Shown: in pieces, positions 394 to 24,261 of the stretch
Numbering within the stretch: position 1 is the stretch's first letter
Layout: every line of letters starts with the position of its first letter
Assembly (NCBI GenBank): GCA_964544275.1
Contig: CAZIZX010000003.1
Coordinates: 43,705-107,704, forward strand
Origin: an uncultured Gammaproteobacteria bacterium
GTDB taxonomy: Bacteria; Patescibacteriota; Microgenomatia; UBA12405
DNA length: 64,000 bases
Direction: 5' to 3'
The notes under the pieces: model-generated
The model's input: the letters and a program-made list of their open reading frames with translations, nothing else
The model's database searches: none
Told to the model about the DNA's origin: nothing
Translations under genes and position numbers: made by a program

Positions 394-2061
394 CTATTGA
401 CTTGTTAACCATATGATTATTGGTTTAACAAAATCAGGTACATTATATTCTTGGTCTTGAGCGATTAGTCTTGCCTTGACGGCTTTAGAAGAATTTGGAT
501 ATTTTTCGCATGCTTTGCAATATACAGCATCGGTTAGAAATGATTTTAATTCTTCCTCATAGTTTTTATTTAATTTCCAAACCTTTGTTTTGTCATTTTC
601 ATATCCATCAAGTAGTTCATTAAATTTTAATTCTTCCGCCTTATCTCGAATATCACTAGAATCAATGTCGTATACAATACCAAATGGAATTCCAAAAGAT
701 GAAGCAAGATCCGCAAAAGCTAATAAGTTTCGTTTACCACCAACCTCAATGATCGTTGCACCATTGTTATCAATATCGAGTACTTCTCTTTTTGCGTATT
801 CTGGAAGTGCCAATTTTTCCGTGTCACCCTCAACTAATAGGATTTTTTTAGCGAAAAACATCTCATTTCTTTCTGGATCAAGCTCTTTTCTAAACTTTTC
901 TTCCAATTCCTTTGTTTTTATAAGAGTCGACTTTGCTTTATTTGTTTGTCCATCTACTTTTTTAATCAAGGTAATTTCATCATATTCTGGTATTGTTACG
1001 AAATGGGGAGAATGGGTGGTGTATATTATTTGATTTGTTTCGCCAATTTTTCTTAGTGTGCTGTACAAAGATCGTTGCATCTGTGGATGGAGGAACATTT
1101 CTGGTTCCTCGATTAAAAAGATTGCACCAGACTTTTTTCTTTCCTCAAATGCCTTCAATATCGCTATTACTAAGGCGTTTTGGAACCCGCCACCTAGCTC
1201 TGTGGCGTTTATTTTGAAATTATTTTCTTCAACATATAAATTTAATGACTTATAAAAGTCTAACGAAGTTAGAGGGTCAAAATATATATTACAGTCCTGA
1301 TCGGTGCCTGGATTATGAATTCCTAGCTGAGCTAAAACATTATCTTTTATAGTTTTTTCTAAACCTAGAAAGTCATCTGTCCTTAAGACACTAATGGCAG
1401 ATTTTATTAGTTTATTAAATTGCTCCATCCTAGGAACTACAACCGTGGCTCCACTTCTATCTTTTACTGATATTGTATTTTGAGGATCTTGAAAGTTTTT
1501 ATCAATATTTTCAAGTAAGATTCCAAGAAGTGAGTTTCTGTAGGAAGGTAGCTGGTATTTAAGTTCTCTTTCTGTGCCTATATAAATTACTGGAATATTT
1601 TCTTGAACTTCTTGAGGAATTGTTGTTAGGGGTTGAAATTGCCTTTGTTCACCTATTTGGGGTCGCTTTGCGAGTATTTGTACTGGACCATTTTTACTAT
1701 TTAAACACTTCTTTTCCAATCTCCTCATTCCTTTATTTGGACCAATTATGTATCTCGTATACAAAAAAGAAATCTTAGGAATATCTATTGGATCAATACC
1801 AGCAAATTGTTGATATTTATATGGTTGATCAAATTCAATTAAAATTTCTATATCCTGGTCAGTTTCGCGACCAAAAACATCGTTTTCATCAAAATTGTTG
1901 ACAGTTACCCAGTCCTTACCCAAAACAGAATATATAGCTTTCAAGATGTTTGATTTTCCAACATTGTTAGCACCAATTAGAGCATTTATGTTACCAAACT
2001 CAAAAGCTATCGGTTCTTTTATTGACCTATAGCCAGATATCGTGATGTTTTTTATCTTCAT
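394..2061 (-). CDS. OLD-family ATP-dependent endonuclease (ABC-type ATPase N-domain plus C-terminal Toprim)
   Basis: N-terminal P-loop ALIGANNVGKSNIL with the SGYRSI signature of AAA15/OLD ATPases. The Q-loop and D-loop region reads FLIEEPEMFLHPQ. C-terminal Toprim-like motif is LLVEGDTEKLALPEY. Confidence 0.75.
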   Translation of the reverse strand: MKIKNITISGYRSIKEPIAFEFGNINALIGANNVGKSNILKAIYSVLGKDWVTVNNFDENDVFGRETDQDIEILIEFDQPYKYQQFAGIDPIDIPKISFLYTRYIIGPNKGMRRLEKKCLNSKNGPVQILAKRPQIGEQRQFQPLTTIPQEVQENIPVIYIGTERELKYQLPSYRNSLLGILLENIDKNFQDPQNTISVKDRSGATVVVPRMEQFNKLIKSAISVLRTDDFLGLEKTIKDNVLAQLGIHNPGTDQDCNIYFDPLTSLDFYKSLNLYVEENNFKINATELGGGFQNALVIAILKAFEERKKSGAIFLIEEPEMFLHPQMQRSLYSTLRKIGETNQIIYTTHSPHFVTIPEYDEITLIKKVDGQTNKAKSTLIKTKELEEKFRKELDPERNEMFFAKKILLVEGDTEKLALPEYAKREVLDIDNNGATIIEVGGKRNLLAFADLASSFGIPFGIVYDIDSSDIRDKAEELKFNELLDGYENDKTKVWKLNKNYEEELKSFLTDAVYCKACEKYPNSSKAVKARLIAQDQEYNVPDFVKPIIIWLTSQ

Positions 2062-2096
2062 TATGTTTTTGTTTATCGTTTATTTCATTAATTAAT

Positions 2097-2924
2097 TTAT
2101 TTTTTACCAACAACGACATATCTTACATCTTGTTCATAAAGAGGGATAAATTTACCGTTATCGAGTACAAATCTTGTTTTAATATAGCCTCTTGGACAAC
2201 ATCTGGCAGAATCATCATCTGGACTTCTCCACTTAACATAAAACCCGTTTGATGTATCAGCGGGGACGATAAATGACTCATCTTCCTCTACATAGAAAAT
2301 TACTTTATCATCTTTAACAATAGCGGCATTATAAGACCCACCGTCAGCCCGACCAACAAAATTCAGTCCAAGTATTTTTTCTTTAACCCCATCACCATCA
2401 ACATCAAAACTATCAAACATCTCTATGTCTTGAAAGACATCCAAGAAATGAACAGCCATCTGTCCATAATTTTTGTAATTTTTATCCACTTCCTCCAACC
2501 AAAGGCTATTATTCTCTGTCTCTTGAATTTTCTTTCTAACATCCGTCCATGTTTTAGTGGTCAGAGGAATAATGTCTGCTGAGTATTTTTTTATTGTGGT
2601 AGTTGTTGTTGGATATGATTGGTATACAGCGTTGCTATCTAAAGCCGCTTGAGTGTATTCGTCCATTGTGCCTTCTTTACCAGCGCCACCTACCGACCCC
2701 CATTCGACGTCTTTTACAGAAAAGTACTTCAATGGTAAATCAAGCCATGGAAATTCATTACACTCCCGATAATCAGTGCTAATGCATTTTTCATTTTCTT
2801 GAATTTTTTGTTCGCTTTTTGGCTGATTTATTAATGTTGGGGTTTCAGTTTTTCGGTTTTTCCAAAACCACAAAGTAACACTAACGACCACAAACCCAAA
2901 AATTATTTTTTTTATGTTTTTCAT
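2097..2924 (-). CDS. membrane-anchored/secreted protein with DxDGDG Ca-binding-like motif; start trimmed to MKNIKK to remove overlap with upstream gene
   Basis: Hydrophobic N-terminal segment IIFGFVVVSVTLWFW, a Thr-rich linker, and DVDGDGVKE. The internal Met lies immediately after the stop of the upstream ORF. No recognisable enzymatic motif. Confidence 0.45.
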   Translation of the reverse strand: MKNIKKIIFGFVVVSVTLWFWKNRKTETPTLINQPKSEQKIQENEKCISTDYRECNEFPWLDLPLKYFSVKDVEWGSVGGAGKEGTMDEYTQAALDSNAVYQSYPTTTTTIKKYSADIIPLTTKTWTDVRKKIQETENNSLWLEEVDKNYKNYGQMAVHFLDVFQDIEMFDSFDVDGDGVKEKILGLNFVGRADGGSYNAAIVKDDKVIFYVEEDESFIVPADTSNGFYVKWRSPDDDSARCCPRGYIKTRFVLDNGKFIPLYEQDVRYVVVGKK

Positions 2925-2928
2925 ATTT

Positions 2929-4626
2929 TTAGCTCTCTCTAAACCAAAATATTCCTTTTTGTATTTTTTTAAATTCAGGTCGACTATGAAGAACCGCCAA
3001 AATATTTGCTGGTTTAGTATCTTTATACTTGCCGACATAGTTATATATTTGTTTCCAGTGAAGAGGAAATCCTGCTTTTGTCATACATTCCCTAACAAGT
3101 TCAACGGTTGACAGTTTACTAATACCCCATTCAGTTAATCCCCAGGTTCCTTTAACTCCACTATGAGCAAAAGTTGGAGTGGTTATGAGTATGTTGTGAG
3201 TTCTCCTCACATTAATTTTCTTATCATTACTAAATAGACGATCGTTAACAGTGTCAGTTATCTCCGTGAAATGTAATGGTTCTCCTGCTTCCTCTAAAAC
3301 TTGTGTTATAACAGAAACCCACCTTTTTGTAATCTTTGAGTGCTCAAATCTTTTAAAACGAAGATTTTCAAGTTCGGCTGAAAGCATGTTTTCAGATATT
3401 ACGAGATCAGGATTTGACTCTTCTATTCTCGGATCAATCCGACAGTATTTTAAAATAAAAAAAATCTTATTAAATCTTTCATCGCTAATTGAATTTAGTA
3501 TCGAGATGTCTTTACTCAACTCTATTAAACTAACCCCCATTTCATTTTTCCCTACTGCTTCAAGGATTTGATCCATAATTTTTTCTAATTTTACCCCGTT
3601 AAATAGCGGGGAATAAAATTTTATGTCCCCAACCATATGTGATTGAAACCATCCAAGTTCACACATTAAATCGAAAACTGAGCTACCGTCGTAATCTGTT
3701 GTTTTTAAAATATTGGGAATGATATGATCTGCGTCATCATCAGATATTAAACCGTTATTTTTATAGAGAACATCTTCAACCAAATTACATAATTGTTTTT
3801 TAACTAAAACTGAGCGATATTTCATAAATTTCAACGACTTTACCTGTATTTGACGTATACGTTCCCGGGTGATTTTATAATCTTCCCCAATTTCTTCTAA
3901 TGTCTGTTTTTCTCCTGAAAAAAGTCCGTATCTTCGCACAATAATATCCATAGCTCTACCATCACCACATTTTTGTATTAATGTATCAATTAATTTATCA
4001 GGCGGAAAACAGATATTCTCCTGAGGTTTTAATTTCAAATAGTTTGTTGTAGTTGTTTTTTGGTTTGGTCCGTCATTTTTTTGGCCATTATTAATTGATC
4101 TTTTAAAATCTTCAATAAGTTTTATTGTTTTTATACCGATATTACTTTGTTTTAATAAAAATATTTCTGAGGTCCTCATTATCTGCCCTACAGTCAAAAT
4201 ACCTGCTTTTTTAATTGCGTTTGTAGCTTTGGTAGATAAACCTATTGAATCGATCTCTATATTTTCATAATATTTAGGTTGTTCAATAACGACTTCTAAA
4301 TTATTTGAGCTAGGCTTTTCTATAACACAGTTTTTTGCAATTTTTTCTTTTATCAAAACTACCGCATTTAATGTTTTTATTCCAATCATTGGAATTTTTA
4401 CTAATTTTGACTCTGGAAAATTTATCAATTGATTCACTGATACTATTCCATGTTTTTTTAATGCATTTGCTGTTCGTATGGGAAAATTAAAGATATCTAT
4501 TGGATCATCCTCGACAATTGAATCTGGTATCTCAAAACCAATCACATTTTCTTTATCAGGTTTATTTCTATAGTCCGATGAAGGGAAAAGTTCTAAAAAA
4601 ATATTATTCAATTTCTGTGTTTTCAT
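2929..4626 (-). CDS. DNA-binding protein with three RpoA-CTD-like helix-hairpin-helix repeats and a sigma-70 region-4-like HTH
   Basis: Repeats RTANALKKHGIVSVNQL, IKTLNAVVL and TKATNAIKKAGILTVGQI resemble the RNA polymerase alpha C-terminal domain HhH. Segment DIIVRRYGLFSGEKQTLEEIGEDYKITRERIRQIQVKSLKFMK resembles sigma-70 region 4. Start is likely the internal Met (MKTQKL); the track start overlaps the upstream gene by 47 nt. Confidence 0.55.
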   Translation of the reverse strand: MKTQKLNNIFLELFPSSDYRNKPDKENVIGFEIPDSIVEDDPIDIFNFPIRTANALKKHGIVSVNQLINFPESKLVKIPMIGIKTLNAVVLIKEKIAKNCVIEKPSSNNLEVVIEQPKYYENIEIDSIGLSTKATNAIKKAGILTVGQIMRTSEIFLLKQSNIGIKTIKLIEDFKRSINNGQKNDGPNQKTTTTNYLKLKPQENICFPPDKLIDTLIQKCGDGRAMDIIVRRYGLFSGEKQTLEEIGEDYKITRERIRQIQVKSLKFMKYRSVLVKKQLCNLVEDVLYKNNGLISDDDADHIIPNILKTTDYDGSSVFDLMCELGWFQSHMVGDIKFYSPLFNGVKLEKIMDQILEAVGKNEMGVSLIELSKDISILNSISDERFNKIFFILKYCRIDPRIEESNPDLVISENMLSAELENLRFKRFEHSKITKRWVSVITQVLEEAGEPLHFTEITDTVNDRLFSNDKKINVRRTHNILITTPTFAHSGVKGTWGLTEWGISKLSTVELVRECMTKAGFPLHWKQIYNYVGKYKDTKPANILAVLHSRPEFKKIQKGIFWFRES

Positions 4627-6439
4627 CAGAACTATTATTGTATTTTTCACCTAATAAAAAATCTTCAAGATCAATAGTTGCCTTATCGTAAACTAAAGAT
4701 GCAACGCGCATTATTTCGTAATCGACCTGTTCCGCGGTTAATGTACCACCTTCTTTTTTCGCGAGGCGATAAATTGTCTCTTTAGTAAAGATATCAACAT
4801 ATCTCTGAAAGAGGTAGTTTCTCCATCTTGGGGAATCAACTCCGTATTTATCTATCAACTTTTTTGCCATTGGTTTTTCAAGATTGATCCAATACAACCC
4901 TCTTTCCACATCCTGTTGTCGCTGTTCGACAGCGAAATGACGATCAGAAAAAATAACAGGGGAACCTGGATATTCTGGATCTTCCTGTCCAGATAGTAAT
5001 ACCATTGGTGCTCTCAATCCCTTTTTCTTTTCTTCACCATCACCGCCACCCTTGCCTTGTCCAGAACCCAAACCTCCTTTTTCTTCTGATTCATGATTTG
5101 TCCCACCACCAGAACCTTCTTCTCCCTCACCCCCAGTTGAGGACCCTTTTCCAGGACCACCAAGAACTTCGGCGAATAATTTTGACATAAACTGATTCTT
5201 CCACTTATTGAGAATCTGATTAAACTCATCTGTTGCTCTGATATTTTTTTCTTCTTCCTGTTTTGCGTCTCTTTCGGCAATTTTTTCAGCAACTTCATCA
5301 ATTTTTTCGGAAATCCACTTTAGAAGAGAATCTGTTCTCTCGTTAGTAACCAGTTTTTCTCGGTCATTTTGAACACAATCATAATCAACGTCTTCTAATA
5401 TTGGACACTTACATTCTCCATAAATATATTGAGCCTGAGGATAATACTTTAAAAAACCTATTTGTTGCATATTGTAAGATGCTATTACTCCTATCTCTCC
5501 AACTATATCAACGCAGTTTAACTCAGGTTTTTTACCACCACGACCAAAGGGTTGAGCAGAAGTTTTAAGAACGAGCGACCCTTCTTCATATTTATCGTTA
5601 GACATTTTAATTTTTTTTCCATTTTCACCAGTTGATGAATCAATCAGTTCTGGAATATCGAAGAGATACGGACCCTCAAATCCTTCCATCGGCTCGATAT
5701 CTTCCATCCGAAGACTGTTCGTTAATATTTTTCCGTTATATAAAACTGAGACATTACAATATTTTAAAGGGCTACGAGCTTGCGGGTGGTATTTTAACTT
5801 TTCACAAATTCTAAAAACAGGTAACTTATTACCTACAATTTTTTTAGGTCTTATTCCCTTAACAACTGTAAACCCAGTTTCTCCATGTTCGAGTTTTCTT
5901 AAAATTGAATTAGGTATTAACAATTTATTGATCCCCGCCATTTTTAAAGCTTCGTCGATAGATACTTTTTTATCCTTTATCCCATTTGCAAAACCATATT
6001 TTCGATTTTCATTGAAACCAAAAATATTTATTTTGCCTGTTTTATATGTAATAAAATACGATTGCTGAAACATCTGTCTCATATAAAACTTTCCTCCATT
6101 CCCGTGACCACCATAGACCCTAATTTTTTTCCCTCTTTTTGCTGCGTCAGGATCTCCCCACCACTTAAAAGCTTTTTCGATATCGACAAGATCCATCCCA
6201 ACAAAATCGGTACATTCAATTACTGGTGGATTATCACTAGTACCATCAGTGAAACCAAAAATTATATATTGATCCTTATCGGACTCCCCAGCTCTGCGGT
6301 AAGCATCAACTGAGTTTTTTAACCATTCAGCAAGCCCTTTTTCATGACTAAAATTGAAAGCACCTCCTAAAATATCAAGAGTATTGTCATGGTAAAGATT
6401 CTGTTCTTCTTTAAAATTTAATAAAACTGATTGTGTCAT
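4604..6439 (-). CDS. GHKL-superfamily ATPase (MutL/MORC-like) with Gly/Glu-rich linker
   Basis: N-box-like HEKGLAEWLKNSVDAYRRAG (E..N..DA), G-box-like GGHGNGGKF, and a long GGPGKGSSTGGEGEEGSGGG... low-complexity linker. The C-terminal region is not recognised. Confidence 0.6.
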   Translation of the reverse strand: MTQSVLLNFKEEQNLYHDNTLDILGGAFNFSHEKGLAEWLKNSVDAYRRAGESDKDQYIIFGFTDGTSDNPPVIECTDFVGMDLVDIEKAFKWWGDPDAAKRGKKIRVYGGHGNGGKFYMRQMFQQSYFITYKTGKINIFGFNENRKYGFANGIKDKKVSIDEALKMAGINKLLIPNSILRKLEHGETGFTVVKGIRPKKIVGNKLPVFRICEKLKYHPQARSPLKYCNVSVLYNGKILTNSLRMEDIEPMEGFEGPYLFDIPELIDSSTGENGKKIKMSNDKYEEGSLVLKTSAQPFGRGGKKPELNCVDIVGEIGVIASYNMQQIGFLKYYPQAQYIYGECKCPILEDVDYDCVQNDREKLVTNERTDSLLKWISEKIDEVAEKIAERDAKQEEEKNIRATDEFNQILNKWKNQFMSKLFAEVLGGPGKGSSTGGEGEEGSGGGTNHESEEKGGLGSGQGKGGGDGEEKKKGLRAPMVLLSGQEDPEYPGSPVIFSDRHFAVEQRQQDVERGLYWINLEKPMAKKLIDKYGVDSPRWRNYLFQRYVDIFTKETIYRLAKKEGGTLTAEQVDYEIMRVASLVYDKATIDLEDFLLGEKYNNSSDENTEIE

Positions 6440-7092
6440 CTGTGACCCCCTTTACTTTTTTGGACAAATTCAATATTTTCTTTGAATCTTTCCATTAAAA
6501 ATTTATGACATTCTCTGAGTTTAATATAAAGCTCGTCACTTTTTTCTTTTATTGCTTTTATTGCTTCTTCTACTGTGGTCAATCTTCCTAAAAAATCAAA
6601 TTTATTTGTTCTTACTGTTACTCCTAAATATGAATAAAAATCTATATCTAAAATTTCTTCCTTTTTTCCATTTAAATACAGATCTACTGCTGTTGAATTT
6701 TTAATTCTTTCCAATTCTTTTTGTTGATCGGCGGTTAGTTTTACAAAAGTTTTAATATTTTTCGAATCTTCTATACTGTTTGCAGCTGGTTTAATCAATC
6801 TCTTTGTATATTCAACTCCTTTTGGTGTTAAGGAAAAATATTTATTGCCAGAAAGAACATAACCACCTTTTTTTAATTCACTATATAGTGGTTTGTGTAC
6901 AATATCTCCAGTATCTGGATATTCAGGGTATCCTTTTAATTGAAAATCGGCTTTGAAATTCAAAAACACATTGACGGCAATATCTTCAAACCTAATTTGT
7001 TTATTAGTACCCTCAGACAGTTCATACAAGGTAACTAATATTTTTTGTGAACGTGTTAGCTTAAGCGATGAATAATTTATTCTACTTTTCAT
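6436..7092 (-). CDS. hypothetical protein (operon member upstream of GHKL ATPase, 4-nt overlap)
   Basis: Intact 218-aa ORF, translationally coupled to the downstream gene. No motif recognised. Confidence 0.5.
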   Translation of the reverse strand: MKSRINYSSLKLTRSQKILVTLYELSEGTNKQIRFEDIAVNVFLNFKADFQLKGYPEYPDTGDIVHKPLYSELKKGGYVLSGNKYFSLTPKGVEYTKRLIKPAANSIEDSKNIKTFVKLTADQQKELERIKNSTAVDLYLNGKKEEILDIDFYSYLGVTVRTNKFDFLGRLTTVEEAIKAIKEKSDELYIKLRECHKFLMERFKENIEFVQKSKGGHR

Positions 7093-7128
7093 TAATATAT
7101 TTGTTTTTGTATTTAATAAATTAATAAT

Positions 7129-7356
7129 TTAAAGCTTAAACTTTCTTTTTTTTCTCAAACCAACTAAAAACCTGGATTTTGTAAGTTTAAGTTCCTCTTC
7201 AATAATTTCAAAAATACTCTTAAACTCTTCTTCTGTATAAAAATAATTGTGTCTATTTGATAGATTTCCCAACAATCTTATGTTTCTGATAGCTCCGTTT
7301 GTCCTGTTGGCAGCCAGTCTTTTAAATGCCGATGATTTTGATTCTCCTGTTTTCAT
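7129..7356 (-). CDS. small basic hypothetical protein (first gene of minus-strand operon)
   Basis: 75-aa ORF with a basic C-terminus (RKKRKFKL), placed directly after the AT-rich divergent intergenic region. Confidence 0.4.
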   Translation of the reverse strand: MKTGESKSSAFKRLAANRTNGAIRNIRLLGNLSNRHNYFYTEEEFKSIFEIIEEELKLTKSRFLVGLRKKRKFKL

Positions 7357-7421
7357 AACATATTAATGGATATGATGGGTATCATACTATATTTTTAATT
7401 TGTAGTCAATATATTTAATTT

Positions 7422-8663
7422 GTGATATGTAAATTTAAAATGCAAGGAATTATAATCAAGATTTATCTTTATTCTCAGTCTAAAATGCGGTATATTAATA
7501 ATGTGAACAATAATTTTGGAGTCATAGATTTATTTTCTGGATGTGGCGGATCTGCTGTTGGTTTTGAAAAAGCAGGTTTACCAATTAAAGTGGCTGTAGA
7601 CATTGATAAACATGCATCTGAGTCCTTTAAAATAAATTTTCCTAATGCCGAAGTATTTACTAATGATATTAGTTACATCTCAGGAAAAGAATTACTGAAA
7701 GCTGGAAAATTTAAAAATGGTAATGAAGTAATTCTAATTGCTTGTCCTCCATGTCAGGGGTTTTCAAATGCAAGACGAAATTCGGAAAGATTAACAGATC
7801 CTAGAAATAAACTTATTTATGAGTTTCTAAGAATCGTTGAAGAAATTAAACCATATGCATTTGTACTTGAAAACGTACCTGGGTTGGCAAAAAATGTCGG
7901 GAAACCAATATTTATTCAAATACTTCAAAGGTTACAAGAGCTTGGATACCAAACTGTTTATGACGTTATAGATACCGCAGACTATGGAGTACCACAAAGA
8001 AGAAAAAGGTTAGTTATGCTTGGCACAAAAGATCAAAAACTCAGACTTACTTTCCCTTCTAAAACAAATGCAGATCCAGCGATTAGTTCTGATTTACCTC
8101 CCTGGAAAACTGTTAGACAGGCAATAGATGACTTGCTTCCTATTAAAGCAGGACAAAAATTAGAAACAGATGCAATGCATATGTCTGCAAACTTATCAGA
8201 ATTAAATATAAAAAGAATGAAGCAAACTCCACATGATGGTGGTGATAGGTTGTCATGGTCTGATGATTTGGTTTTAGAGTGTCACAAAAATTTCGAAGGT
8301 CATCGTGATGTCTACGGAAGAATGAGGTGGGACTCACCTTCGCCTACAATTACTGGTGGCTGTGCTATGGTTTCAAAGGGTAGATTTGGGCATCCTGAAC
8401 AAAACAGAGCAATTTCATTAAGAGAGGCAGCCAGACTTCAGACATTTCCTGATAATTTTAAATTTATCGGAAATTTTGGTCAGATAGCAAAACAACTTGG
8501 AAATGCGGTGCCACCATTACTTGGAGAAATAGCTGCAAAAACACTTCTTAAATCAATATCTGATTTAAAGGCTGCAAAAAAATTAGTTCCAAAAAGAAAA
8601 ATATCTAGAAATATTTATAGATCAAATCAACTGAACGGGCAAATAATTAGTGGTACCATTTAA
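7422..8663 (+). CDS. DNA (cytosine-5)-methyltransferase
   Basis: Motif I DLFSGCGG, motif IV PPCQGFS (catalytic Pro-Cys), motif VI ENV, QRR.R, and C-terminal GN.V. The true start may be the internal MRYINN at 7485. Confidence 0.85.
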   Translation: MICKFKMQGIIIKIYLYSQSKMRYINNVNNNFGVIDLFSGCGGSAVGFEKAGLPIKVAVDIDKHASESFKINFPNAEVFTNDISYISGKELLKAGKFKNGNEVILIACPPCQGFSNARRNSERLTDPRNKLIYEFLRIVEEIKPYAFVLENVPGLAKNVGKPIFIQILQRLQELGYQTVYDVIDTADYGVPQRRKRLVMLGTKDQKLRLTFPSKTNADPAISSDLPPWKTVRQAIDDLLPIKAGQKLETDAMHMSANLSELNIKRMKQTPHDGGDRLSWSDDLVLECHKNFEGHRDVYGRMRWDSPSPTITGGCAMVSKGRFGHPEQNRAISLREAARLQTFPDNFKFIGNFGQIAKQLGNAVPPLLGEIAAKTLLKSISDLKAAKKLVPKRKISRNIYRSNQLNGQIISGTI

Positions 8664-8720
8664 CGGTTTGATTAAAAAAAGAAAATTTGATATATTAATT
8701 TAATTCAGCATAAACTGAAT

Positions 8721-8803
8721 TTAGGTGTTTAACCTGTAAACTCCGAAAGTAGATACACTCCAGGCACAGGGCCAGGAATATTACTACTTTAAGGAGTTTT
8801 TTT
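8721..8803 (+). promoter_or_regulatory. Highly conserved 83-nt leader upstream of ParB-MTase (copy 1); about 95% identical to 27535-27617 on the opposite strand
   Basis: ttaggtgtttaacctgtaaactccgaaagtagat...ggcacagggcc..aaggagttttttt is shared by both copies, with a 5-bp cctgt/acagg stem. It is more conserved than the adjacent coding sequence. Confidence 0.55.
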
Positions 8804-10138
8804 ATGGTCAATACACCAAACATAAAAACCGTCCTCGTAAAAGTTACAGATTTAATCCCCTCGAATTACAATCCACGAAAGTGGAGCAAAGAGCAGGTTG
8901 AACAGTTAAAGGAGAGTATTCAGCGCTTCGGAATTGTCGACCCTATCATTGCTAATATTGCCGATAATCGGAAAAATATTGTCATAGGTGGACATTTTCG
9001 TCTCGCGTTAGCCAAACAACTCGGATATAAAGAAATCCCGGTTGTTTATGTAAACATTCCAGAAATTGAGCGTGAAAGAGAGCTAAACTTACGATTAAAT
9101 AAAAATCAGGGCGAATTTGACTATAGTCTGTTGGCAAAATTCGACGAGAATATATTAAGTGGTATCGGTTTTAGTAGTGAAGAGATAGACAGTATTTTCG
9201 ACATAGACGATACCAACACCGAAATTTTTGATCTGGAAAAAGAACTAAAAAAGTTGAAGATTGATGAGATCAAATTCCAAAAAGGTGATATATATGCGTT
9301 AGGAGACTCGCGTCTGATGTGCGGTGACTCAACCATCGAGGCTGACGTAATAAAATTAATGAATGGCGAAAAAGCCTCAATGTGCTTCACTGACCCACCC
9401 TATCTTTTATCCTATCTTTACGGCAAACAACGACATGGTAATCCGACAGTTGGTTTCGGAGCTAAAAAGAATCGTCGCTATTTAGAGACCGATGTGTTGC
9501 CGGACAATTTTACTGAGCTTTGGATGGCCAATATTGCCAAAATTCAAGACGAAAACTTTTCAATAATCGTTTATGAAAATTGGAAAAACATTAGAATTAT
9601 TTGGGGAGAAATGGAGAAGTACTGGCGAGTAAAAAATATGCTCGTTTGGCATCTTCCTAACCGAAACCAAGGCTATTCGGCTAAATACAAATTTTTCTCA
9701 AAACATGACATTGCTATGGTAGGAGCATCGCTTAATAGTGATATTGAATTTAATAATGAGCTAGAAATTGATGGTCTTCAGGAGGAATACGAAACGGCTC
9801 TTTATGCCATTAGTGGTAAGCCCCAATGGGAGGGTTATAAAAAAGGAAAGAAGTACCAGCCGACAGATTTTATTGAATTTAATGCCTCAGATGAAAAAAG
9901 TTCTGGCCAGGGAATAATTTTTGGCACCAAACCAATTGAAATTCTTATCCCCTATATTAAAGCCCTCACCAGAAGAGGTGATCTGATTGTAGAACCCTTC
10001 TCTGGCAGTGGTAGTACCCTGATTGCGGCTACTAAAATGAAAAGACGGTGTTATGGTATGGAAAAGTCGCCCGTCTATGCAGAGGTCATTAAAAAACGTT
10101 GGGAGAACTTAACTGGACTAAAGGGGGTAAAAATATGA
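8804..10138 (+). CDS. ParB-like nuclease domain fused to N6-adenine/N4-cytosine DNA methyltransferase
   Basis: N-terminal ParB/Srx-like region (DPIIAN...GGHFRL). MTase motif IV DPPY (CFTDPPY) and motif I EPFSGSGST. This architecture is common in phage-encoded MTases. Confidence 0.8.
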   Translation: MVNTPNIKTVLVKVTDLIPSNYNPRKWSKEQVEQLKESIQRFGIVDPIIANIADNRKNIVIGGHFRLALAKQLGYKEIPVVYVNIPEIERERELNLRLNKNQGEFDYSLLAKFDENILSGIGFSSEEIDSIFDIDDTNTEIFDLEKELKKLKIDEIKFQKGDIYALGDSRLMCGDSTIEADVIKLMNGEKASMCFTDPPYLLSYLYGKQRHGNPTVGFGAKKNRRYLETDVLPDNFTELWMANIAKIQDENFSIIVYENWKNIRIIWGEMEKYWRVKNMLVWHLPNRNQGYSAKYKFFSKHDIAMVGASLNSDIEFNNELEIDGLQEEYETALYAISGKPQWEGYKKGKKYQPTDFIEFNASDEKSSGQGIIFGTKPIEILIPYIKALTRRGDLIVEPFSGSGSTLIAATKMKRRCYGMEKSPVYAEVIKKRWENLTGLKGVKI

Positions 10139-10557
10139 AAAATAAACAGCAGGTAATCGATCAGCTTAAATTCAACCCAATTATTCAAATCGCCTGTCAA
10201 AAATCCGGAGTCAGTCGGGCCACCTTTTATCGGTGGAGAAGCGAAGATGAAGAGTTTAAAAAACAGACTGAAACGGCAATTCAAGACGGTGTCCTATTGA
10301 TAAATGATTTAGCCGAAAGTCAATTGTTGGCGGCCATTAAGGAACAAAACTTAACCGCCATAATATTTTGGTTAAAAAATCACCATGGAGACTACGCTGA
10401 CAAGATTCAGGTCAACACTGACCGAGGATTGATAGATACCAACCTAACGCCAGAAGAAGAGAAGTTAGTTAAAAAGGCTTTAAAAATGGCCGGAATTATT
10501 AATTCACCCCTTAAACATGATCAATCAAAAGCTGGACATCAAAGAGATAATAAATAA
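10135..10557 (+). CDS. terminase small subunit-like HTH protein
   Basis: HTH IACQKSGVSRATFYRWRSEDEEFK. It lies immediately upstream of and overlaps the terminase large subunit. ATGA-coupled to the MTase stop, with SD AAGGGGGT. Confidence 0.6.
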   Translation: MKNKQQVIDQLKFNPIIQIACQKSGVSRATFYRWRSEDEEFKKQTETAIQDGVLLINDLAESQLLAAIKEQNLTAIIFWLKNHHGDYADKIQVNTDRGLIDTNLTPEEEKLVKKALKMAGIINSPLKHDQSKAGHQRDNK

Positions 10558-12079
10558 CCAAAAACTTAGAAAAGAATTGGCAGTAAATAGCCTTTATTGG
10601 TTTTTTCACATCTATCTTCACGATTATGTTCATTTTAAAACGGCTGATTTTCAAAAGGAAATCATTAGCATTGCCGAAAACCAAAACCTGAAAAATGCTT
10701 TTATTGTCGCTTTCCGTGGCTCGGCTAAATCAACCTTGGCCACTTTAGCCCTCCCTTTATGGTCAATAGTAGGTAAGTATAAAAAGAAATTTATCGTTAT
10801 TATTTCTCAAACCCAATCTCAGGCTAAACTTATTTTATCCAACATTCGCGGAGAAATTGAACACAACGAATTATTTATTAAAGATTTTGGTCATTTGAGT
10901 ACTAGTTCGACTAATAATGAGTGGAATTCGGGTACTATTGTTATTGGAAAATCAGGCAGCAGAATTAGTGTCTACTCAACAGGAGAAAGTATTCGGGGCA
11001 TCCGAAATCTATCGGCCAGACCAGATTTAATCATCGGCGACGACCTTGAAGATCTGGCTTCGGTAAAAAGCAGAGACATAAGAGAACAGACTTTTAACTG
11101 GTTTACTGGGGAAATAATGCCACTGGGAGATCCAAAAACAAAGTTAATTGTCATTGGTAACTTACTCCATGAAGATTCTTTAATGATGAAAATTAAAAAC
11201 GCAATTTGTAGTGATTCATTGAGCGGTAAATTTTACGAGTATCCATTGATTTCACCAGGTGGTGCAATTGCTTGGCCAGGAAAGTATCCAACTCAAAAGG
11301 AGATTACAGAAGAAAGGAGAAAAATTGGTAATAATATTGCTTGGCATCGAGAATATTTATTGCAGATTCTACCGCCAGAAGATCGAATAATTCATTATGA
11401 ATGGATAAAATTTTATGATCAATTGCCCCTTAACATCCAAGCCAATCGGGTTGGTTATGTAATCTCTGTTGACCCAGCAATTTCTCAAAAACATACCGCT
11501 GATAAGACTGCTATTCTAGTGGGGGTGATATATAAATCAAAAGATTTTCACTATTTATACATTACCGATATCTACAACTCACAAATTAATTTCCCCACCA
11601 CTAAAGAATTGATCGAAAAATTATCCAACACGGTGGATTCGAGACGGAAAACAACGATTTTAGTTGAACAAGTTGGTTATCAAGAAGCCCTCATACAAGC
11701 CCTTAAGACTGAAGGATACCCAGTTGAAGGAATTAATCCCCACGGGAGCGACAAGAGGGCTAGATTAAGTGTCGCCAGCAGTTATGTCAAAAACGGAAAT
11801 GTATATTTTCCTAAACATAGATCTTCTGAATTAATTGATCAATTAACCAATTTTGGAGTCGAAAAGTATGACGATTTAGCCGATGCCTTTACGATGATGG
11901 TTAACGAGGTATTTGGAACTAATAATAGTCGACTAAATTCCCAAGGTCCAATAAGTGTTAATGTAATCGGACCTTCTATGTATGGAAGGAAGCCAGGTGA
12001 AGACTGGGCCGATGCTGAAGACAGACAAATGCTAGGAAGAATAAATCGAAGAGCAAAATGGAGAAGAATAATTGGATAA
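10517..12079 (+). CDS. phage terminase large subunit
   Basis: Walker A-like FRGSAKST, and a terminase ATPase plus RNaseH-like nuclease architecture over its length. About 80% identical to 24262-25821. Confidence 0.8.
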   Translation: MINQKLDIKEIINNQKLRKELAVNSLYWFFHIYLHDYVHFKTADFQKEIISIAENQNLKNAFIVAFRGSAKSTLATLALPLWSIVGKYKKKFIVIISQTQSQAKLILSNIRGEIEHNELFIKDFGHLSTSSTNNEWNSGTIVIGKSGSRISVYSTGESIRGIRNLSARPDLIIGDDLEDLASVKSRDIREQTFNWFTGEIMPLGDPKTKLIVIGNLLHEDSLMMKIKNAICSDSLSGKFYEYPLISPGGAIAWPGKYPTQKEITEERRKIGNNIAWHREYLLQILPPEDRIIHYEWIKFYDQLPLNIQANRVGYVISVDPAISQKHTADKTAILVGVIYKSKDFHYLYITDIYNSQINFPTTKELIEKLSNTVDSRRKTTILVEQVGYQEALIQALKTEGYPVEGINPHGSDKRARLSVASSYVKNGNVYFPKHRSSELIDQLTNFGVEKYDDLADAFTMMVNEVFGTNNSRLNSQGPISVNVIGPSMYGRKPGEDWADAEDRQMLGRINRRAKWRRIIG

Positions 12080-12084
12080 CTAAT

Positions 12085-12423
12085 TTATTGTCCAGGCAAT
12101 AACGAGTCGGCCTTAATCTTCAACGCTTTACTGATTTTATATAGTACGTAAGCCGTTGGAGTATATTTCGCGTTTTCAAGATGACCTACATAGGTTCGAT
12201 AAAGACCTGCTTGATGAGACAACTCTTCCTGAGACATCCCCGATTCCTCTCTGGCTGTTTTGATTCTTTCGGCTAATTTTTTGGTAAAAACATCTTTTGA
12301 TAACACAAACTCATCATATTCAAGACTCAGAATACTGCCACGCAGTATACATAGACTAAACCGATAAAATATGTCATCATATACGTGAATTAGTGATTGA
12401 AAATAATTCACGAAAGTAAACAA
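12085..12423 (-). CDS. XRE-family HTH transcriptional regulator
   Basis: C-terminal LAERIKTAREESGMSQEELSHQAGLYRTYVGHLENAKYTPTAYVLYKISKALKI matches the Cro/C1-type HTH. The 5' end is uncertain; a GTG at V40 is possible. Confidence 0.7.
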   Translation of the reverse strand: MFTFVNYFQSLIHVYDDIFYRFSLCILRGSILSLEYDEFVLSKDVFTKKLAERIKTAREESGMSQEELSHQAGLYRTYVGHLENAKYTPTAYVLYKISKALKIKADSLLPGQ

Positions 12424-12428
12424 ATTTT

Positions 12429-13502
12429 ATGGCGATAATAATTTCTAAAAATGGGAAAAACGCAATTAAGTTAGACAAGAGTAATTTCCGTTTAGAAGAC
12501 AATCTCCAACAGTACATATACGATAATCCAGAAAGCATTCCTCTCTACGATATTAAAGAAGATATAAAACTCCTGATTTTGGCTCGGGAATTTTCCACTA
12601 AAAGTGGGCCGATAGATGCCCTGGGGGTGGATAAAGATGGTGAAATATATTTAATTGAAACCAAACTTTATAAAAACCCTGATAAAAGAACAGTTGTGGC
12701 TCAAGTCTTAGATTACGGAGCTTCACTTTGGTCAAACTTTAGAGACTTTAGAAATTTTATTGAACAAATAAACCTTCACACTAATAAGGATTTTGGTAAA
12801 ACCCTAAAACAAAGATTGACAGATTTCTTTGAGATTTCTGATGATGAAATTAATTATCTACTGGAAAACACTAGAAGAAATTTAAACGATGGCAACTTTA
12901 AATTTGTTGTTCTAATGGATCATTTACACGATCAACTTAAAGACTTAATTATTTTCCTCAACAATAACAGTGAATTTACTGTTTATGCCGTTGAATTGGA
13001 ATATTACAAACACCAGGATTTTGAAATATTAATTCCGAAACTGTATGGCTCTGAAGTGAAAAAAGATATTGGTAAATCTACGGTATCAAAAACTATTTTG
13101 ACTGATGAAGAGTTTACAAACTACTACAAAGATAGATCAGAAGAACCTCTAGTCGAAGAACTTTTACATCTCAGTAACCGAATTAATGAGAATCAGAGCG
13201 ACTACCCAAACATTATGTCTATCAAGACTCCAAAATTTTTAAACTTCTATTTGACAACCTCATTTGGGGACAAAGTCTCAATTAATTTACCAGTAAATCC
13301 TGATGCTGAAGGAGGAGGACTACAGATTTGGGGCTCCGACATAAATCGGCAAAAAGTAGAGAGTGTTTTAAATGATTCCAAACTCAAATACGAAAAAATA
13401 ATATTTAAAGGGAATAAAAGCGGTAAAATTGCCAGAATTCAACTTAAAGACATCACCATTAATCAGTTTGATGATTTCTTAAAAAAATTAGCGGTAATCT
13501 AA
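12429..13502 (+). CDS. PD-(D/E)xK-type nuclease-like protein (NucS/DUF91/DUF4263-like N-domain)
   Basis: IDALGVDKDGEIYLIETKL fits the D...E.K restriction-endonuclease-fold signature. The C-terminal half is unassigned. Confidence 0.45.
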   Translation: MAIIISKNGKNAIKLDKSNFRLEDNLQQYIYDNPESIPLYDIKEDIKLLILAREFSTKSGPIDALGVDKDGEIYLIETKLYKNPDKRTVVAQVLDYGASLWSNFRDFRNFIEQINLHTNKDFGKTLKQRLTDFFEISDDEINYLLENTRRNLNDGNFKFVVLMDHLHDQLKDLIIFLNNNSEFTVYAVELEYYKHQDFEILIPKLYGSEVKKDIGKSTVSKTILTDEEFTNYYKDRSEEPLVEELLHLSNRINENQSDYPNIMSIKTPKFLNFYLTTSFGDKVSINLPVNPDAEGGGLQIWGSDINRQKVESVLNDSKLKYEKIIFKGNKSGKIARIQLKDITINQFDDFLKKLAVI

Positions 13503-13549
13503 TCCATTCATCTCCTAGACTTCCCTAAAACCTGCGGTACAGTTGTGTC

Positions 13550-14875
13550 ATGAAGAAGAAAGAAGATGGAAAGATACAAGAAAAAGAACAAATAAAATTT
13601 TGCCTCTACGCTAGAAAATCATCCGAATCCGATGAGCGACAGGCTATGTCGATCGAATCTCAAATCAATGAGATGAAGGAGCTGGCAAAAAGAGAAAATC
13701 TACTAATTAAAGAAGTCCGACAAGAAAGTCACTCGGCCAAATTATCATCTCAAAGACCAGTCTTTAACCAATTATTGATTGATATCAGGGCTGGAGAATT
13801 TACTGGGATACTAACTTGGGCTCCTGATAGATTGAGCCGAAATGCAGGGGATCTTGGAACACTGGTAGATTTAATGGATCAGGGGAAATTACAAACGATA
13901 CGGACATATTCACAATCCTTTTCCGATAATCCAAATGAGAAATTCTTGCTAATGATTCTCTGCTCTCAGGCAAAACTGGAAAATGACAACAGAGGCATCA
14001 ATGTTAGACGTGGGATGAAAGCCAAATGCGAAGCTGGATGGCGACCCAATATGGCCCCGCTTGGATATCGTAATGTAATGAATTACAACCGGATAAGTTA
14101 CGTTGAAATTGACGAAGAAAGAGCGCCGATAATAAGGCAGATGTTTAACCGGGTGGGGAATGATGGCCATAGTGGTAAGACCATAAAAAAGTGGCTGGAT
14201 AGAATCGAATTTACCACCCGAAGCGGAAAACCATTAGCATTAAGTAAGGTTTATACAACCTTAAAAAATCCATTTTATTATGGTGAATTTGAATTTAATG
14301 GCAAGATTTATAAAGGCAAACACGAGCCCTTAATAACTAAGGAATTATTTGAAAAAGTCCAGCTCCAATTGGTGGCTCCGGATAGAGAATGGAATAAAAA
14401 AGTCTTTCCTTTCAGAAGTCTTTGCTACTGTGGAACTTGTGGCGAAAGAGTGACAGCTGAGGAAAAATATAAAAAGAATAAATCTGGTGGAGTCAGAAAA
14501 TATATCTACTATCACTGTGGTAAACATATAAATTATGACTGCGATGAACCCTATATTAGTGAGGAAGACCTGATCCAACAACTGGTCATCCACATTGATG
14601 AAATAAAATTACACGAAAAAGAACTTACCCAATATTTAAAACAGGACATTGATAAATTCCACAGATTAAGAGATGAAGTCCTTAATCAGGAAATTATAAG
14701 CGGAAAATTAATCGAACTCGATTATGATGCCTTTAACCATATTGGCAAAGATAAAATCAAGGAATATTTAATCTATGTTCTAAAATTTGGAACGGCAGAA
14801 GAAAGACTTAAAGTAATGTCAGCCATAAAAACCCGATTTATCCTACACAATAAAGAGTTAACCATTAAACAATAA
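13550..14875 (+). CDS. large serine recombinase (phage integrase type)
   Basis: Resolvase catalytic region YARKSSESDERQAMSIESQ (catalytic Ser), a recombinase domain, and zinc ribbon CYCGTCGE...YYHCG. Confidence 0.85.
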   Translation: MKKKEDGKIQEKEQIKFCLYARKSSESDERQAMSIESQINEMKELAKRENLLIKEVRQESHSAKLSSQRPVFNQLLIDIRAGEFTGILTWAPDRLSRNAGDLGTLVDLMDQGKLQTIRTYSQSFSDNPNEKFLLMILCSQAKLENDNRGINVRRGMKAKCEAGWRPNMAPLGYRNVMNYNRISYVEIDEERAPIIRQMFNRVGNDGHSGKTIKKWLDRIEFTTRSGKPLALSKVYTTLKNPFYYGEFEFNGKIYKGKHEPLITKELFEKVQLQLVAPDREWNKKVFPFRSLCYCGTCGERVTAEEKYKKNKSGGVRKYIYYHCGKHINYDCDEPYISEEDLIQQLVIHIDEIKLHEKELTQYLKQDIDKFHRLRDEVLNQEIISGKLIELDYDAFNHIGKDKIKEYLIYVLKFGTAEERLKVMSAIKTRFILHNKELTIKQ

Positions 14876-20894: not shown

Positions 20895-21028
20895 GATAAT
20901 TCATTATATATCATAATCCACTATTACAGGCATATTTTAAGCATAATACCGAAACTCAAAAAAATATAAGGGAAGATTAGGGATTCCTAGCTATACCATT
21001 AAAATTACATGGAAAGATAGGTTAAAAG

Positions 21029-21110
21029 CGGAGAGAGAGGGAGTCGAACCCCCAAGCCCTTGCGGGCGGCGACTTTCGAGGTCGCTGCCTTACCATTCGG
21101 CGCATCTCTC
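21029..21110 (-). tRNA. tRNA-Ser (anticodon CGA), long variable arm
   Basis: Reverse complement folds as GGAGAGA/TCTCTCC acceptor, anticodon loop CUCGAAA, long variable arm, and GGTTCGACTCC T-arm. Confidence 0.8.
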
Positions 21111-21113
21111 CAG

Positions 21114-21190
21114 TTGGTACGCTCGAGAGGGGTCGAACCTCCAACCGCTGGTTCCGCAAACCAGTGCTCTATCCAATTGAGCTACGAGCG
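21114..21190 (-). tRNA. tRNA-Arg (anticodon GCG), CCA encoded
   Basis: Reverse complement reads GCGCTCG TA GCTC AATTGGATA GAGC A CTGGT TTGCGGA ACCAG CGGTT GGAGG TTCGACC CCTCT CGAGCGT A CCA. Positions 34-36 are GCG. Confidence 0.75.
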
Positions 21191-21220
21191 CATTAACAGT
21201 GAATTATACCCTAAACTAGC

Positions 21221-21778
21221 TTAATTTTCTCTGTTTTCCAAAGGAAGTCTTTCAATAAACCACTTACTGGCCTTATCCACAAAATTGGGTGAATTTTCTA
21301 CTAGTGGAATTTTCTTAATTATAATCTCTTTTAGTTTCTCTTTGTCTTTTTCTTCTACTACCAAAGACACCTGTGGCGGAAACCTTAAATTAGTTTCAAG
21401 CAGCATTGTCTCAGTTCCCAAACTTTTCTTAAACCAAAACCTTACCAACTGTTCCCACGGATACATTAATTCACCAAAATATATTCCTCTGTTGGTAATT
21501 TTATTTTTGATTTTTTCCGGAGGCACCGTCGACAAGACATAATACAAAAACAATACCGACCCCAACGCCATAATCAAGAAAAACTCCTTCAACAAAAAAA
21601 ATATCACCGACACTATAACCAAAATTGCCACTGAAGTAATCCAAAAATCCTTGTCTCTGACTTTATACACTCTTTCATGGGCTTCCCACTCATACAAAAC
21701 CACTTCTTCATTCAAATCCTTAAAGGACGCATCAACCGCATCAAGATCTTTTTCTACTTTATTTGCCATTAATAACAC
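21221..21778 (-). CDS. small membrane protein (two TM helices) of unknown function
   Basis: Intact 185-aa ORF between tRNA genes, with central hydrophobic helices. Confidence 0.5.
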   Translation of the reverse strand: MLLMANKVEKDLDAVDASFKDLNEEVVLYEWEAHERVYKVRDKDFWITSVAILVIVSVIFFLLKEFFLIMALGSVLFLYYVLSTVPPEKIKNKITNRGIYFGELMYPWEQLVRFWFKKSLGTETMLLETNLRFPPQVSLVVEEKDKEKLKEIIIKKIPLVENSPNFVDKASKWFIERLPLENREN

Positions 21779-21825
21779 TATAAATCATTTTGCCTGAATT
21801 TGGTATACTTAAACGCATCTTGAAA

Positions 21826-21911
21826 GGAAGGTTGCGGCGAATGGTAAGCCACAGGTTTGCTAAACCTGCGTCCGAAAGGGCATGTGGGTTCGACTCCCAC
21901 ACCTTCCGCCA
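21826..21911 (+). tRNA. tRNA-Ser (anticodon GCT), long variable arm, CCA encoded
   Basis: GGAAGGT acceptor, anticodon loop TTGCTAA, long variable arm, GGGTTCGACTCCC T-arm, and 3' ACCTTCC-G-CCA. The track ORF 21790-22047 is spurious. Confidence 0.8.
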
Positions 21912-24217: not shown

Positions 24218-24261
24218 AACACAACTGTACCGCAGGGTTTAAGGAAGTCTAGGAGATGTAA

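Follow-up and report, generated by a model that had tools for sequence, protein, structure and literature searches.

A methylation-linked cassette built around a MORC-like GHKL ATPase, a candidate defence system in a Microgenomatia genome fragment

Which of the genes that lie side by side in a putative bacterial defence locus form one system, and which only travel with it? The question is raised by the beginning of a 64,000-nucleotide (nt) stretch of DNA from an uncultured bacterium of the Microgenomatia (contig CAZIZX010000003.1; hereafter the window), where a C5-cytosine DNA methyltransferase (5-methylcytosine methyltransferase, m5C MTase) gene diverges from a minus-strand operon that includes a GHKL ATPase and an OLD-family nuclease. 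An earlier note on this DNA read seven open reading frames (ORFs) as a single candidate restriction or defence system with the OLD protein as its nuclease effector. Our preferred reading, to which we give a probability of roughly 0.55, is narrower: window positions 2929–8663 would constitute a five-gene, methylation-linked defence cassette centred on a MORC-like GHKL+S5 ATPase, and the OLD and membrane-protein genes next to it would be separate cargo. All coordinates are positions in the window unless assigned to another locus, and p75, p218, p611 and p573 denote the window proteins of those lengths in amino acids (aa). The seven ORFs are all present where they had been placed, and since hundreds of homologues conserve these genes, they are not chance ORFs.

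A conserved core around a GHKL ATPase

The extent of the system was delimited by synteny. The best 80 loci together with five places from an exact-protein look-up gave 85 loci, 81 of them non-redundant, in which ORFs were called and searched with iterated profiles of each window protein. p218 was found in 77 of the 81 loci (95%), the p573 family in 64 (79%), an m5C MTase adjoining the cassette in 55 (68%) and p75 in 41 (51%), always immediately upstream of p218. The membrane protein was present in two loci and an OLD-like gene in one, a weak match in locus L054. The conserved multi-gene system that had been proposed therefore stands as a GHKL ATPase core linked to an m5C MTase, without the OLD and membrane proteins as partners, and the six- or seven-gene set is not maintained as a unit. 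p218 is an obligate partner of the ATPase. The idea that p75 is fused into long p573 homologues where a separate p75 is absent was also pursued, with no match.

The core genes in the window are compactly arranged, as first described. p75 (7129–7356, minus strand; a basic protein with an isoelectric point of 10.4) is the first gene of the operon and is followed after 36 nt by p218 (6436–7092, minus), which overlaps p611 (4604–6439, minus) by 4 nt; p611 in turn overlaps p573 (2929–4650, minus) by 23–47 nt. On the plus strand, the MTase ORF spans 7422–8663, with a probable start at ATG 7440 (407 aa). The AT-rich region between the divergent genes exists, and with this start it covers 83 nt (7357–7439) rather than the 65 nt originally given. 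Facing the operon within it is a sigma-70-like pair, TTGACT-17 nt-TATGAT, at 7409–7381 on the minus strand, which is a consensus match only; a promoter scan found no more promoter-like sites than in shuffled sequence.

The identity of p611 was established from its motifs and a structure model. The protein has no match in Pfam, NCBIfam, PADLOC (also at E ≤ 10) or PHROGs, and identification from sequence by phmmer and profile searches of the PDB gave nothing meaningful, so that only the model was informative. The Pfam families HATPase_c and HATPase_c_3 do not recognise p611; when ten distant relatives (750–800 aa) were scanned, HATPase_c_3 appeared in a single member (E 0.12) and Big_2 in C-terminal parts. 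GHKL motifs I–III (ExxxNxxD, a DxGxG-type motif and GxxGxG) are nonetheless readable: E38, N42, D45, D78, G81 and GGHGNGGKFYMRQMF are invariant or near-invariant (≥90%) in 36 homologues, and G110–K117, GGHGNGGK in p611, is conserved at the same level. An AlphaFold2 model built from the 36-homologue alignment (predicted local distance difference test score, pLDDT, 77) shows a GHKL domain and then an S5-fold transducer domain, followed by a 60-residue helix (367–426), a linker (429–474) and a conserved C-terminal domain (479–611). The Gly/Glu-rich linker noted earlier is real, with pLDDT below 50 and conserved disorder. The top Foldseek match of the model was DNA-bound MORC2 (E 1.2e-10), and Hsp90/TRAP1 and SMCHD1 scored only a little lower; from this ranking together with the motifs we regard p611 as a GHKL+S5 ATPase of the DNA-acting, MORC-like kind. 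The GHKL call is thus upheld by ATP-binding motifs and modelled fold, and p611 is predicted to bind and use ATP through its GHKL+S5 module.

The partners of the ATPase include small proteins outside the current family collections and a protein composed of recognisable DNA-binding modules. The model of p218 (pLDDT 82) predicts an N-terminal winged helix of the MarR/PadR/F93 type and a helical C-terminal domain. Searches of Pfam, NCBIfam release 20, PHROGs and PADLOC, the last with its threshold relaxed to E ≤ 10, gave no match for p218 or p75; p75 carries the conserved motif RFKRLA..RTN......LGN.SN...Y.Y..E..KIF. p573 had been described as combining three helix-hairpin-helix repeats like those of the RNA polymerase alpha subunit C-terminal domain (alpha-CTD) with a sigma-70 region-4-like helix-turn-helix. 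Pfam and NCBIfam models support both kinds of domain (RNA_pol_A_CTD and Sigma70_r4), with two alpha-CTD repeats (~50–117 and ~120–181), not three, and they add two HARE-HTH copies (~441–510 and ~515–573) beyond a middle region. Sigma70_r4 occurs in all 25 family members scanned, RNA_pol_A_CTD in 22 and HARE-HTH in 12, and occasional members bear DnaA_C or GyrA_C. The p573 profile aligns with region 4 of primary sigma factors at E ~1e-22, and the sole invariant or near-invariant residues across the family, R262, E263, R264, R266, Q267 and I268, all lie in the RERIRQI helix (262–268), which we take to correspond to the −35-contacting helix of sigma-70 (R584–I590). The alpha-CTD repeats retain equivalents of R265, N268, G296 and K298, the determinant through which alpha-CTD binds DNA at upstream promoter (UP) elements. 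From the retention of both sets of residues we infer that p573, the putative DNA-targeting subunit, binds promoter-like DNA. In the Solirubrobacterales the slot of this presumed reader is occupied by a small Mrr_N(+SeqA_N) protein; HARE-HTH and Mrr_N are both domains known from restriction enzymes.

These features also bear on two readings in which p573 serves something other than targeting foreign DNA. In the first, the cassette would be a transcription-control or element-maintenance module, with p573 a promoter regulator or RNA-polymerase mimic and its GHKL partner an anti-sigma-like kinase or chaperone, together controlling island genes or host takeover. The closeness of its sigma-4 domain to primary sigma region 4, the retained −35-contacting and alpha-CTD residues, the good Foldseek scores of Hsp90-type chaperones and the placement of the cassette within an integrative island that also has terminase-like genes (see below) all agree with this. 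We nevertheless judge it very unlikely, given that many cassette contexts have no island backbone, that the cassette is linked to m5C MTase, Vsr and toxin or nuclease genes, and that replacement by Mrr_N proteins and additions of DnaA_C or GyrA_C fit generic DNA targeting better than sigma mimicry. The second reading makes p573 a decoy, whose copies of RNA-polymerase domains would bait phage proteins that attack the host polymerase and so trigger the ATPase and effectors. Sigma-4 and alpha-CTD are indeed attacked by phage factors such as T4 AsiA and Alt/ModA; alpha-CTD, sigma-4 and the delta-like HARE-HTH all derive from RNA-polymerase subunits, and Fic, protease and PIN effectors, encoded beside some cassettes, would suit an abortive-infection output. 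The residues that the family conserves are, however, the DNA-contacting ones (RERIRQI and the R265/N268/G296/K298 equivalents), some members carry DnaA_C or GyrA_C, Mrr_N proteins can replace the reader, and the linkage to a methylase would be left unexplained, all of which make a decoy highly improbable.

Methylation, neighbouring genes and a proposed mode of action

The methylase call is secure. The protein matches PF00145 (E 2.5e-70) and TIGR00675 (dcm), and the motifs FSGCGG, PCQ, ENV, QRR and GNAVPP are readable. Vsr is absent from this window; elsewhere a Vsr cluster occurs in 37 of the 85 loci, and Vsr is the commonest flanking family. This company suggests an alternative in which the Dcm-type MTase, Vsr and a MutL-like ATPase form a mobile DNA-repair or epigenetic-maintenance module that aids very-short-patch repair of T:G pairs or mismatch repair in reduced genomes. 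Vsr clusters do flank the MTase, many hosts are small-genome bacteria of the candidate phyla radiation (CPR), genes for HhH-GPD glycosylases neighbour the cassette in two loci, and a functional MutL–Vsr interaction in E. coli is cited in PMC2292703. Yet the window has no Vsr, both MTase and Vsr are missing from about 30% of loci, which carry Fic, HNH or PIN genes instead, no MutS-like mismatch sensor is present, and the nearest structures to p611 are MORC and SMCHD1, not MutL. The cassette is moreover sporadic (found in about 187 of 185,579 species genomes), mobile, and placed among recombinases and defence genes. Taken together, we find a repair module quite unlikely.

The cassette is widely distributed. 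The p611 family has about 770 members in a collection of 5.8 billion proteins (459 representatives at 50% identity), and the 187 relatives just mentioned were found in contigs sampled at one genome per species. Hosts span at least ten phyla, among them CPR groups, Acidobacteriota, Nitrospirota, Verrucomicrobiota, Planctomycetota, Myxococcota, Actinomycetota and Ignavibacteria; the cassette is sporadic and horizontally mobile across them. The family is rare in IMG/VR (six loci), and no member was found in the GenBank phage collection, two results that we count as neutral. Four arrangements recur: A, [Vsr, MTase] p75 p218 p611 p573 [MTase, Vsr], chiefly in CPR bacteria; B, [MazE-like antitoxin, PIN] p573 p218 p611 MTase Vsr; C, a small SeqA_N/Mrr_N protein followed by p218 p611 MTase Vsr, in the Solirubrobacterales; and D, antitoxin, PIN, p573 p218 p611 with or without HNH and lacking the MTase, in Ignavibacteria. 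A distant version of the core trio, differently ordered, lies on a conjugative plasmid of the cultured bacterium Ensifer adhaerens (NZ_CP118613.1, 59223–62548; locus L115, 7641–10966), with a p75-like protein of 75 aa (E 3e-25), a p611-like protein of 800 aa (E 8e-47) and a p218-like protein of 229 aa (E 4e-11); genes nearby include one for an AAA ATPase and one for a 'DNA methyltransferase' that is not of the m5C type.

The genes that surround the core vary. A Pfam census of 149 flanking proteins returned Vsr 29 times, PIN 11, serine recombinase and Mrr_N 4 each, Trypsin_2 and Fic 3 each, and SduA_C 2. Directly downstream of the core and co-oriented with it, in several unrelated lineages, are Fic (four loci), Trypsin_2 (at least four) and HNH (four) genes. 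Serine recombinases occur at 12 loci, and GmrSD, Shedu, Ltp or RhuM genes lie nearby in some, in keeping with the earlier observation that the locus sits among defence genes. In ten loci of arrangements B and D (L027, L037, L047, L076 and L080–L085) a small-protein/PIN pair precedes p573 (or p218) in the same orientation; its upstream gene is MazE/AbrB-like in L027, the one member scanned, and its second gene is a VapC-like PIN protein. This pair could be an addiction module or the RNase effector of these arrangements.

If the five-gene defence cassette is real, it might work as follows. The m5C MTase would mark resident DNA, and Vsr, where encoded, would repair T:G mismatches left by the deamination of m5C and so limit the mutagenic cost. 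p573 would bind DNA through its RNA-polymerase-derived modules while its HARE-HTH copies probe the modification state, a role that the Mrr_N protein would take over in lineages with arrangement C. Together with p218 and p75 it would load or activate the ATPase dimer on unmarked foreign DNA, whereupon ATP-driven closure of the GHKL gate would clamp or compact the DNA and block replication or transcription in a nuclease-free, BREX- or MORC-like manner. The output could alternatively be the licensing of variable neighbours (HNH, VapBC-type antitoxin–PIN, Fic, a trypsin-like protease and possibly OLD here); that no nuclease is recognisable in the core is what points to occlusion or to activation of such neighbours. 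A bolder form of the scheme, which we think unlikely, sees the cassette as a nuclease-free bacterial counterpart of MORC silencing, in which p573 finds unmethylated promoter-like DNA and loads a compacting ATPase clamp. Its alpha-CTDs would recognise UP-like A/T tracts, its sigma-4 domain −35-like hexamers and its HARE-HTH copies the state of modification, and transcription and replication of the invader would be shut down; HNH, PIN, Fic, protease and OLD proteins would then be optional back-ups.

In favour of the defence-cassette reading we count the synteny across loci, the reader slot filled by domains known from restriction enzymes, the variable toxin or nuclease genes beside the core, the mobile and defence context, the type I R-M system at the corresponding position of a second island and the precedents (both below), and the repeated recruitment of m5C MTases from different lineages to the same core, which is indicated by the lack of correlation between MTase and p611 identity (rho 0.08). 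Several findings weigh against a methylation-linked defence cassette. First, across loci the identity of p218 follows that of p611 (rho 0.54) and the identity of the MTase does not. Second, about 30% of loci, some with full flanks, have no linked m5C MTase, so methylation would not be obligatory for all subtypes. Third, Pfam, PADLOC and NCBIfam models recognise neither a nuclease nor any other effector among the five core proteins. Fourth, the Foldseek scores of Hsp90/TRAP1 for p611 are near those of MORC. Fifth, flanking genes are mostly housekeeping genes, and the hosts are uncultivated save for one distant relative. Lastly, the defence role is inferred from genomic context, and everything past fold, motifs and synteny is inference.

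Separate cargo in an integrative island

The OLD gene (394–2061, minus strand) encodes a single 555-aa polypeptide with an ATP-binding cassette (ABC) ATPase and a Toprim nuclease domain. Its family assignment was confirmed by the Pfam domains AAA_15 and OLD-like_TOPRIM and by PADLOC models (GajA, E 2e-48; Old, E 1.8e-46 over the full length), and the Walker A (GANNVGKS) and Toprim (VEGDTE...DID) motifs are readable. Its nearest PDB entry is the class 1 enzyme TsOLD of Thermus scotoductus (6P74, E 5e-46), with GajA at E 5e-17. As had been noted, no UvrD-like GajB partner lies beside it: none was found in 1–12 kb, and a reverse transcriptase neighbour is absent as well.

Comparison with close relatives separates this gene from the cassette. 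Locus L006 (Candidatus Shapirobacteria) matches window 2086–12061 at 94% identity, and 11 nt after the stop codon of its membrane-protein gene it has about 4 kb of Shedu-type cargo in place of OLD, followed by a 112-nt repeat. In L093 identity to the window falls from 100% in p611 to 96%, 89% and then 80% in OLD, after which the repeat follows, as would be expected for cassette exchange. The products of the replacement cargo in L006 (its positions 9949–13966) are a multi-Zn-ribbon protein of 537 aa, a Shedu SduA_C nuclease of 395 aa and a further protein of 392 aa; this cargo may be a Shedu variant with partners.

OLD orthologues (57–67% identity) were also found inside type I restriction-modification (R-M) operons of the order hsdM-hsdS-OLD-hsdR, in which stop and start codons overlap. 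This arrangement occurs in at least six sampled loci (L095/L096, 4387–11083; L094, 1–8665; L098, L099, L101 and L102). It suggests that this OLD subfamily is recurrently tied in function to methylation-based systems, and it agrees with the proposal that OLD-ABC/TOPRIM proteins act as back-ups (PMC12839542).

These observations largely decide against the model first put forward, in which seven genes form one system and OLD, a Toprim nuclease, is its dedicated effector. Support for that model can be found: the six genes of the minus strand share one orientation and lie close together (4 nt from p573 to the membrane-protein gene and 35 nt from there to OLD) with no terminator-like site predicted between them, the arrangement recurs in L092 and, with an OLD 80% identical, in L093, the OLD-like gene of L054 lies two genes from the cassette, orthologues are embedded in type I R-M operons, and OLD-ABC/TOPRIM proteins have been proposed as BREX-type back-up effectors (PMC12839542). 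On the other side stand the counts of one (OLD-like) and two (membrane protein) among 81 non-redundant loci, the Shedu-type cargo that takes the place of OLD in a relative 94% identical over 10 kb, the sharp identity drop towards OLD in L093, and the closeness of the enzyme to the self-sufficient TsOLD. As an obligate unit the seven-gene system is largely refuted, and we consider the model as a whole very improbable. OLD travels independently, as seen from its replacement in L006, its divergence in L093 and its orthologues in R-M operons, and this is the very behaviour that the earlier note had said would count against its model; OLD is therefore not a dedicated effector and at most an accessory or back-up module. 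Most likely it is a class-1-like, self-contained ATPase-nuclease that acts alone or as a back-up layer.

The second passenger is a membrane or secreted protein (2097–2924, minus strand). It has an N-terminal hydrophobic anchor, and gene models in L006 and L092 make a start at 2924 (275 aa) likelier than one at 3038, the beginning of the 313-aa ORF (2097–3038). The protein also occurs in the near-identical contigs L092 and L093 and has no family match in Pfam, PADLOC or further family searches; it is lineage-specific cargo, not a core gene. In other loci the slot downstream of p573 holds an Ltp lipoprotein, Fic, Trypsin_2 or HNH gene. One case is a Staskawiczbacteria locus (L038, 13488–14282), where an Ltp-type lipoprotein occupies the slot of the 275-aa protein. 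Ltp-type lipoproteins are a family associated with phage superinfection exclusion, and the shared slot suggests that the 275-aa protein may be exclusion-type cargo.

Both passengers and the cassette lie in one mobile element. On the 3' side of the MTase are a ParB_N+N6_N4 methylase gene, small- and large-terminase-like genes and a large serine integrase (13550–14875), and past the integrase come host-type genes (YibE/F and a polysaccharide deacetylase). The ORF at 13550–14875 was also considered as a phage portal, which was rejected in favour of the integrase, and the integrase in turn points to an integrative island or satellite-like element as the backbone rather than a full prophage. Window 8721–14724 has an inverted paralogue at 23043–27617, 71–78% identical, and the two flank a tRNA cluster (21028–21911). 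Both backbones comprise the ParB_N+N6_N4 methylase, TerS-like, TerL-like and large serine integrase genes. Where the first island has the cassette, the second has a type I R-M system together with YgjP, DUF4145 and NYN genes, in the order YgjP (27666–28385), HsdR (28385–31591), HsdS, DUF4145, NYN, HsdM (34461–35972) and HsdS. This comparison indicates that a satellite-like integrative island of about 14.6 kb carries the cassette and OLD as cargo in its variable arm, and such an arm is a typical place for defence genes.

The cargo ends at the 112-nt repeat, outside the system proper. The earlier note had placed the locus just inside a repeat at 236–345; the repeat is real and has an inverted copy at 53658–53768, and its span is 249–360. 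Copies follow directly after the cargo in L006 (14026–14137) and L093 (5889–6002), so that the cargo ends exactly at the repeat in three genomes, with different flanks beyond it. The repeat always lies directly upstream of a gene, in one orientation throughout: a Bact_hydrolase-like ORF left of 235 (minus strand), a PMT_2 glycosyltransferase at 54317–55825 and, in L006, a putatively PMT-like membrane protein of 480 aa. One possible role for it is that of a common 5' leader or promoter; another is that of the site at which the island integrates. Two further ideas were rejected: the repeat is not a known or strongly structured RNA (no Rfam match; folding z-scores −0.7 to −2.05, with −1.4 and −2.05 in the gene-ward orientation), and the second island does not extend to the repeat copy at 53.7 kb, the interval 38–50 kb being occupied by housekeeping-type genes, among them those for histidyl-tRNA synthetase, an M3 peptidase and radical S-adenosylmethionine enzymes.

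Comparison with known systems

The closest precedent is the prediction, made in 2008, that GHKL (MORC/paraMORC) ATPases found with Dcm, Vsr and HNH genes are R-M components (Iyer, Abhiman & Aravind, PMC2292703). These paraMORC systems resemble the cassette in having a GHKL+S5 ATPase with a conserved C-terminal extension, cytosine MTase, Vsr and sometimes HNH neighbours, and a sporadic, mobile distribution; the corresponding neighbours of the cassette are the MTase in 55 of 81 loci, the Vsr cluster in 37 of 85 and HNH in four. Unlike the cassette, the systems described there include a superfamily 2 helicase and a nuclease of the restriction-endonuclease fold, and the searched passages of that paper make no mention of the fixed partners p75, winged helix-turn-helix p218 and p573. 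No helicase recurs in the cassette flanks, where the 149 neighbours include a single SLFN-g3 helicase. Later work validated paraMORC3 as a Shedu variant (PMC12137116), and HEF_HK/Response_reg_2 paraMORC modules (bioRxiv 10.1101/2020.08.26.268516) likewise place a GHKL protein and a small partner by C-5 MTases, Vsr and HNH; p611, p218 and p75 have no Pfam HEF_HK, Response_reg_2 or HATPase_c_3 match, and the partners differ. A literature search on prokaryotic MORC/paraMORC proteins and on GHKL with HARE-HTH and cytosine methylase did not find this gene combination described. The general theme has thus been known since 2008, and what appears to be new is the fixed partner set. Its lack of a match to any named system, remarked on earlier, is borne out for p611, p218 and p75 (PADLOC at E ≤ 10, NCBIfam 2026, Pfam and PHROGs), three families for which these collections hold no model and which therefore mark an annotation gap.

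MZA also has a MutL-like GHKL ATPase (MzaB). Experimentally validated for defence, it shares with the cassette a sigma-70-family protein, MzaA (NCBIfam NF041931), of which p573 matches only the last ~50 residues, at 44.5 bits against a cutoff of 800; PADLOC found no matches to MzaB–E in the cassette proteins. Bacteriophage exclusion (BREX) systems, specifically type 2 with PglW, are similar in being methylation-linked, in lacking an obvious classical nuclease, and in having a large ATPase and multi-winged-helix/alpha-CTD modules. They differ in that the cassette ATPase is of the GHKL and not the P-loop type and its methylase is an m5C enzyme, the BREX methylase being of the N6-adenine type. 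The BREX core proteins PglZ, BrxC/PglY and PglX are absent from the seven genes by PADLOC, and the sole BREX-related match is a weak one between p573 and PglW 806–956. PglW of BREX type 2 has an alpha-CTD-like domain, and accessory OLD/TOPRIM, HNH and PIN 'back-up' effectors dock beside the BREX core (PMC12839542).

Class 1 OLD proteins (P2 Old and TsOLD) are, like the OLD here (~555 aa), single ABC ATPase and Toprim polypeptides without a UvrD or reverse transcriptase partner, and the P2 old gene also sits at the end of a mobile element (PMC10568477). Class 1 genes are described as lying away from other defence genes (PMC10568477), whereas this OLD and its orthologues lie beside the cassette or inside hsdM-hsdS-OLD-hsdR operons; such docking beside methylation systems bears on the question of whether class 1 OLD proteins defend alone or back up R-M-type systems. 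With regard to Gabija, OLD matches the GajA models and the GajB UvrD-like helicase is missing. For type II R-M the MTase is intact, and no restriction-endonuclease-like domain was found in the core proteins, though such enzymes often escape sequence models. The MTase matches the DruM and DrmMII models generically, and DruE/F/G of Druantia II and DrmA/B/C of class 2 DISARM are absent.

Among solved structures, those of eukaryotic MORC and SMCHD1 proteins are nearest to p611. Sequence identity is 9–15% and p611 has no CW or chromatin-reader domains; clamping or compaction of DNA by p611 is putative. If the cassette is a defence system, a MORC-like GHKL ATPase would be the central engine of a family spanning at least ten phyla, mostly uncultivated bacteria such as the CPR, and promoter-recognition domains of RNA polymerase would have been reused as targeting modules. 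It would then offer a simple prokaryotic model for the action of MORC-type ATPases on DNA in connection with cytosine methylation. The likeness to eukaryotic MORC and SMCHD1 extends from the GHKL+S5 module to the long helix or coiled coil that follows it, the Gly-rich disordered linker and the link to cytosine methylation itself.

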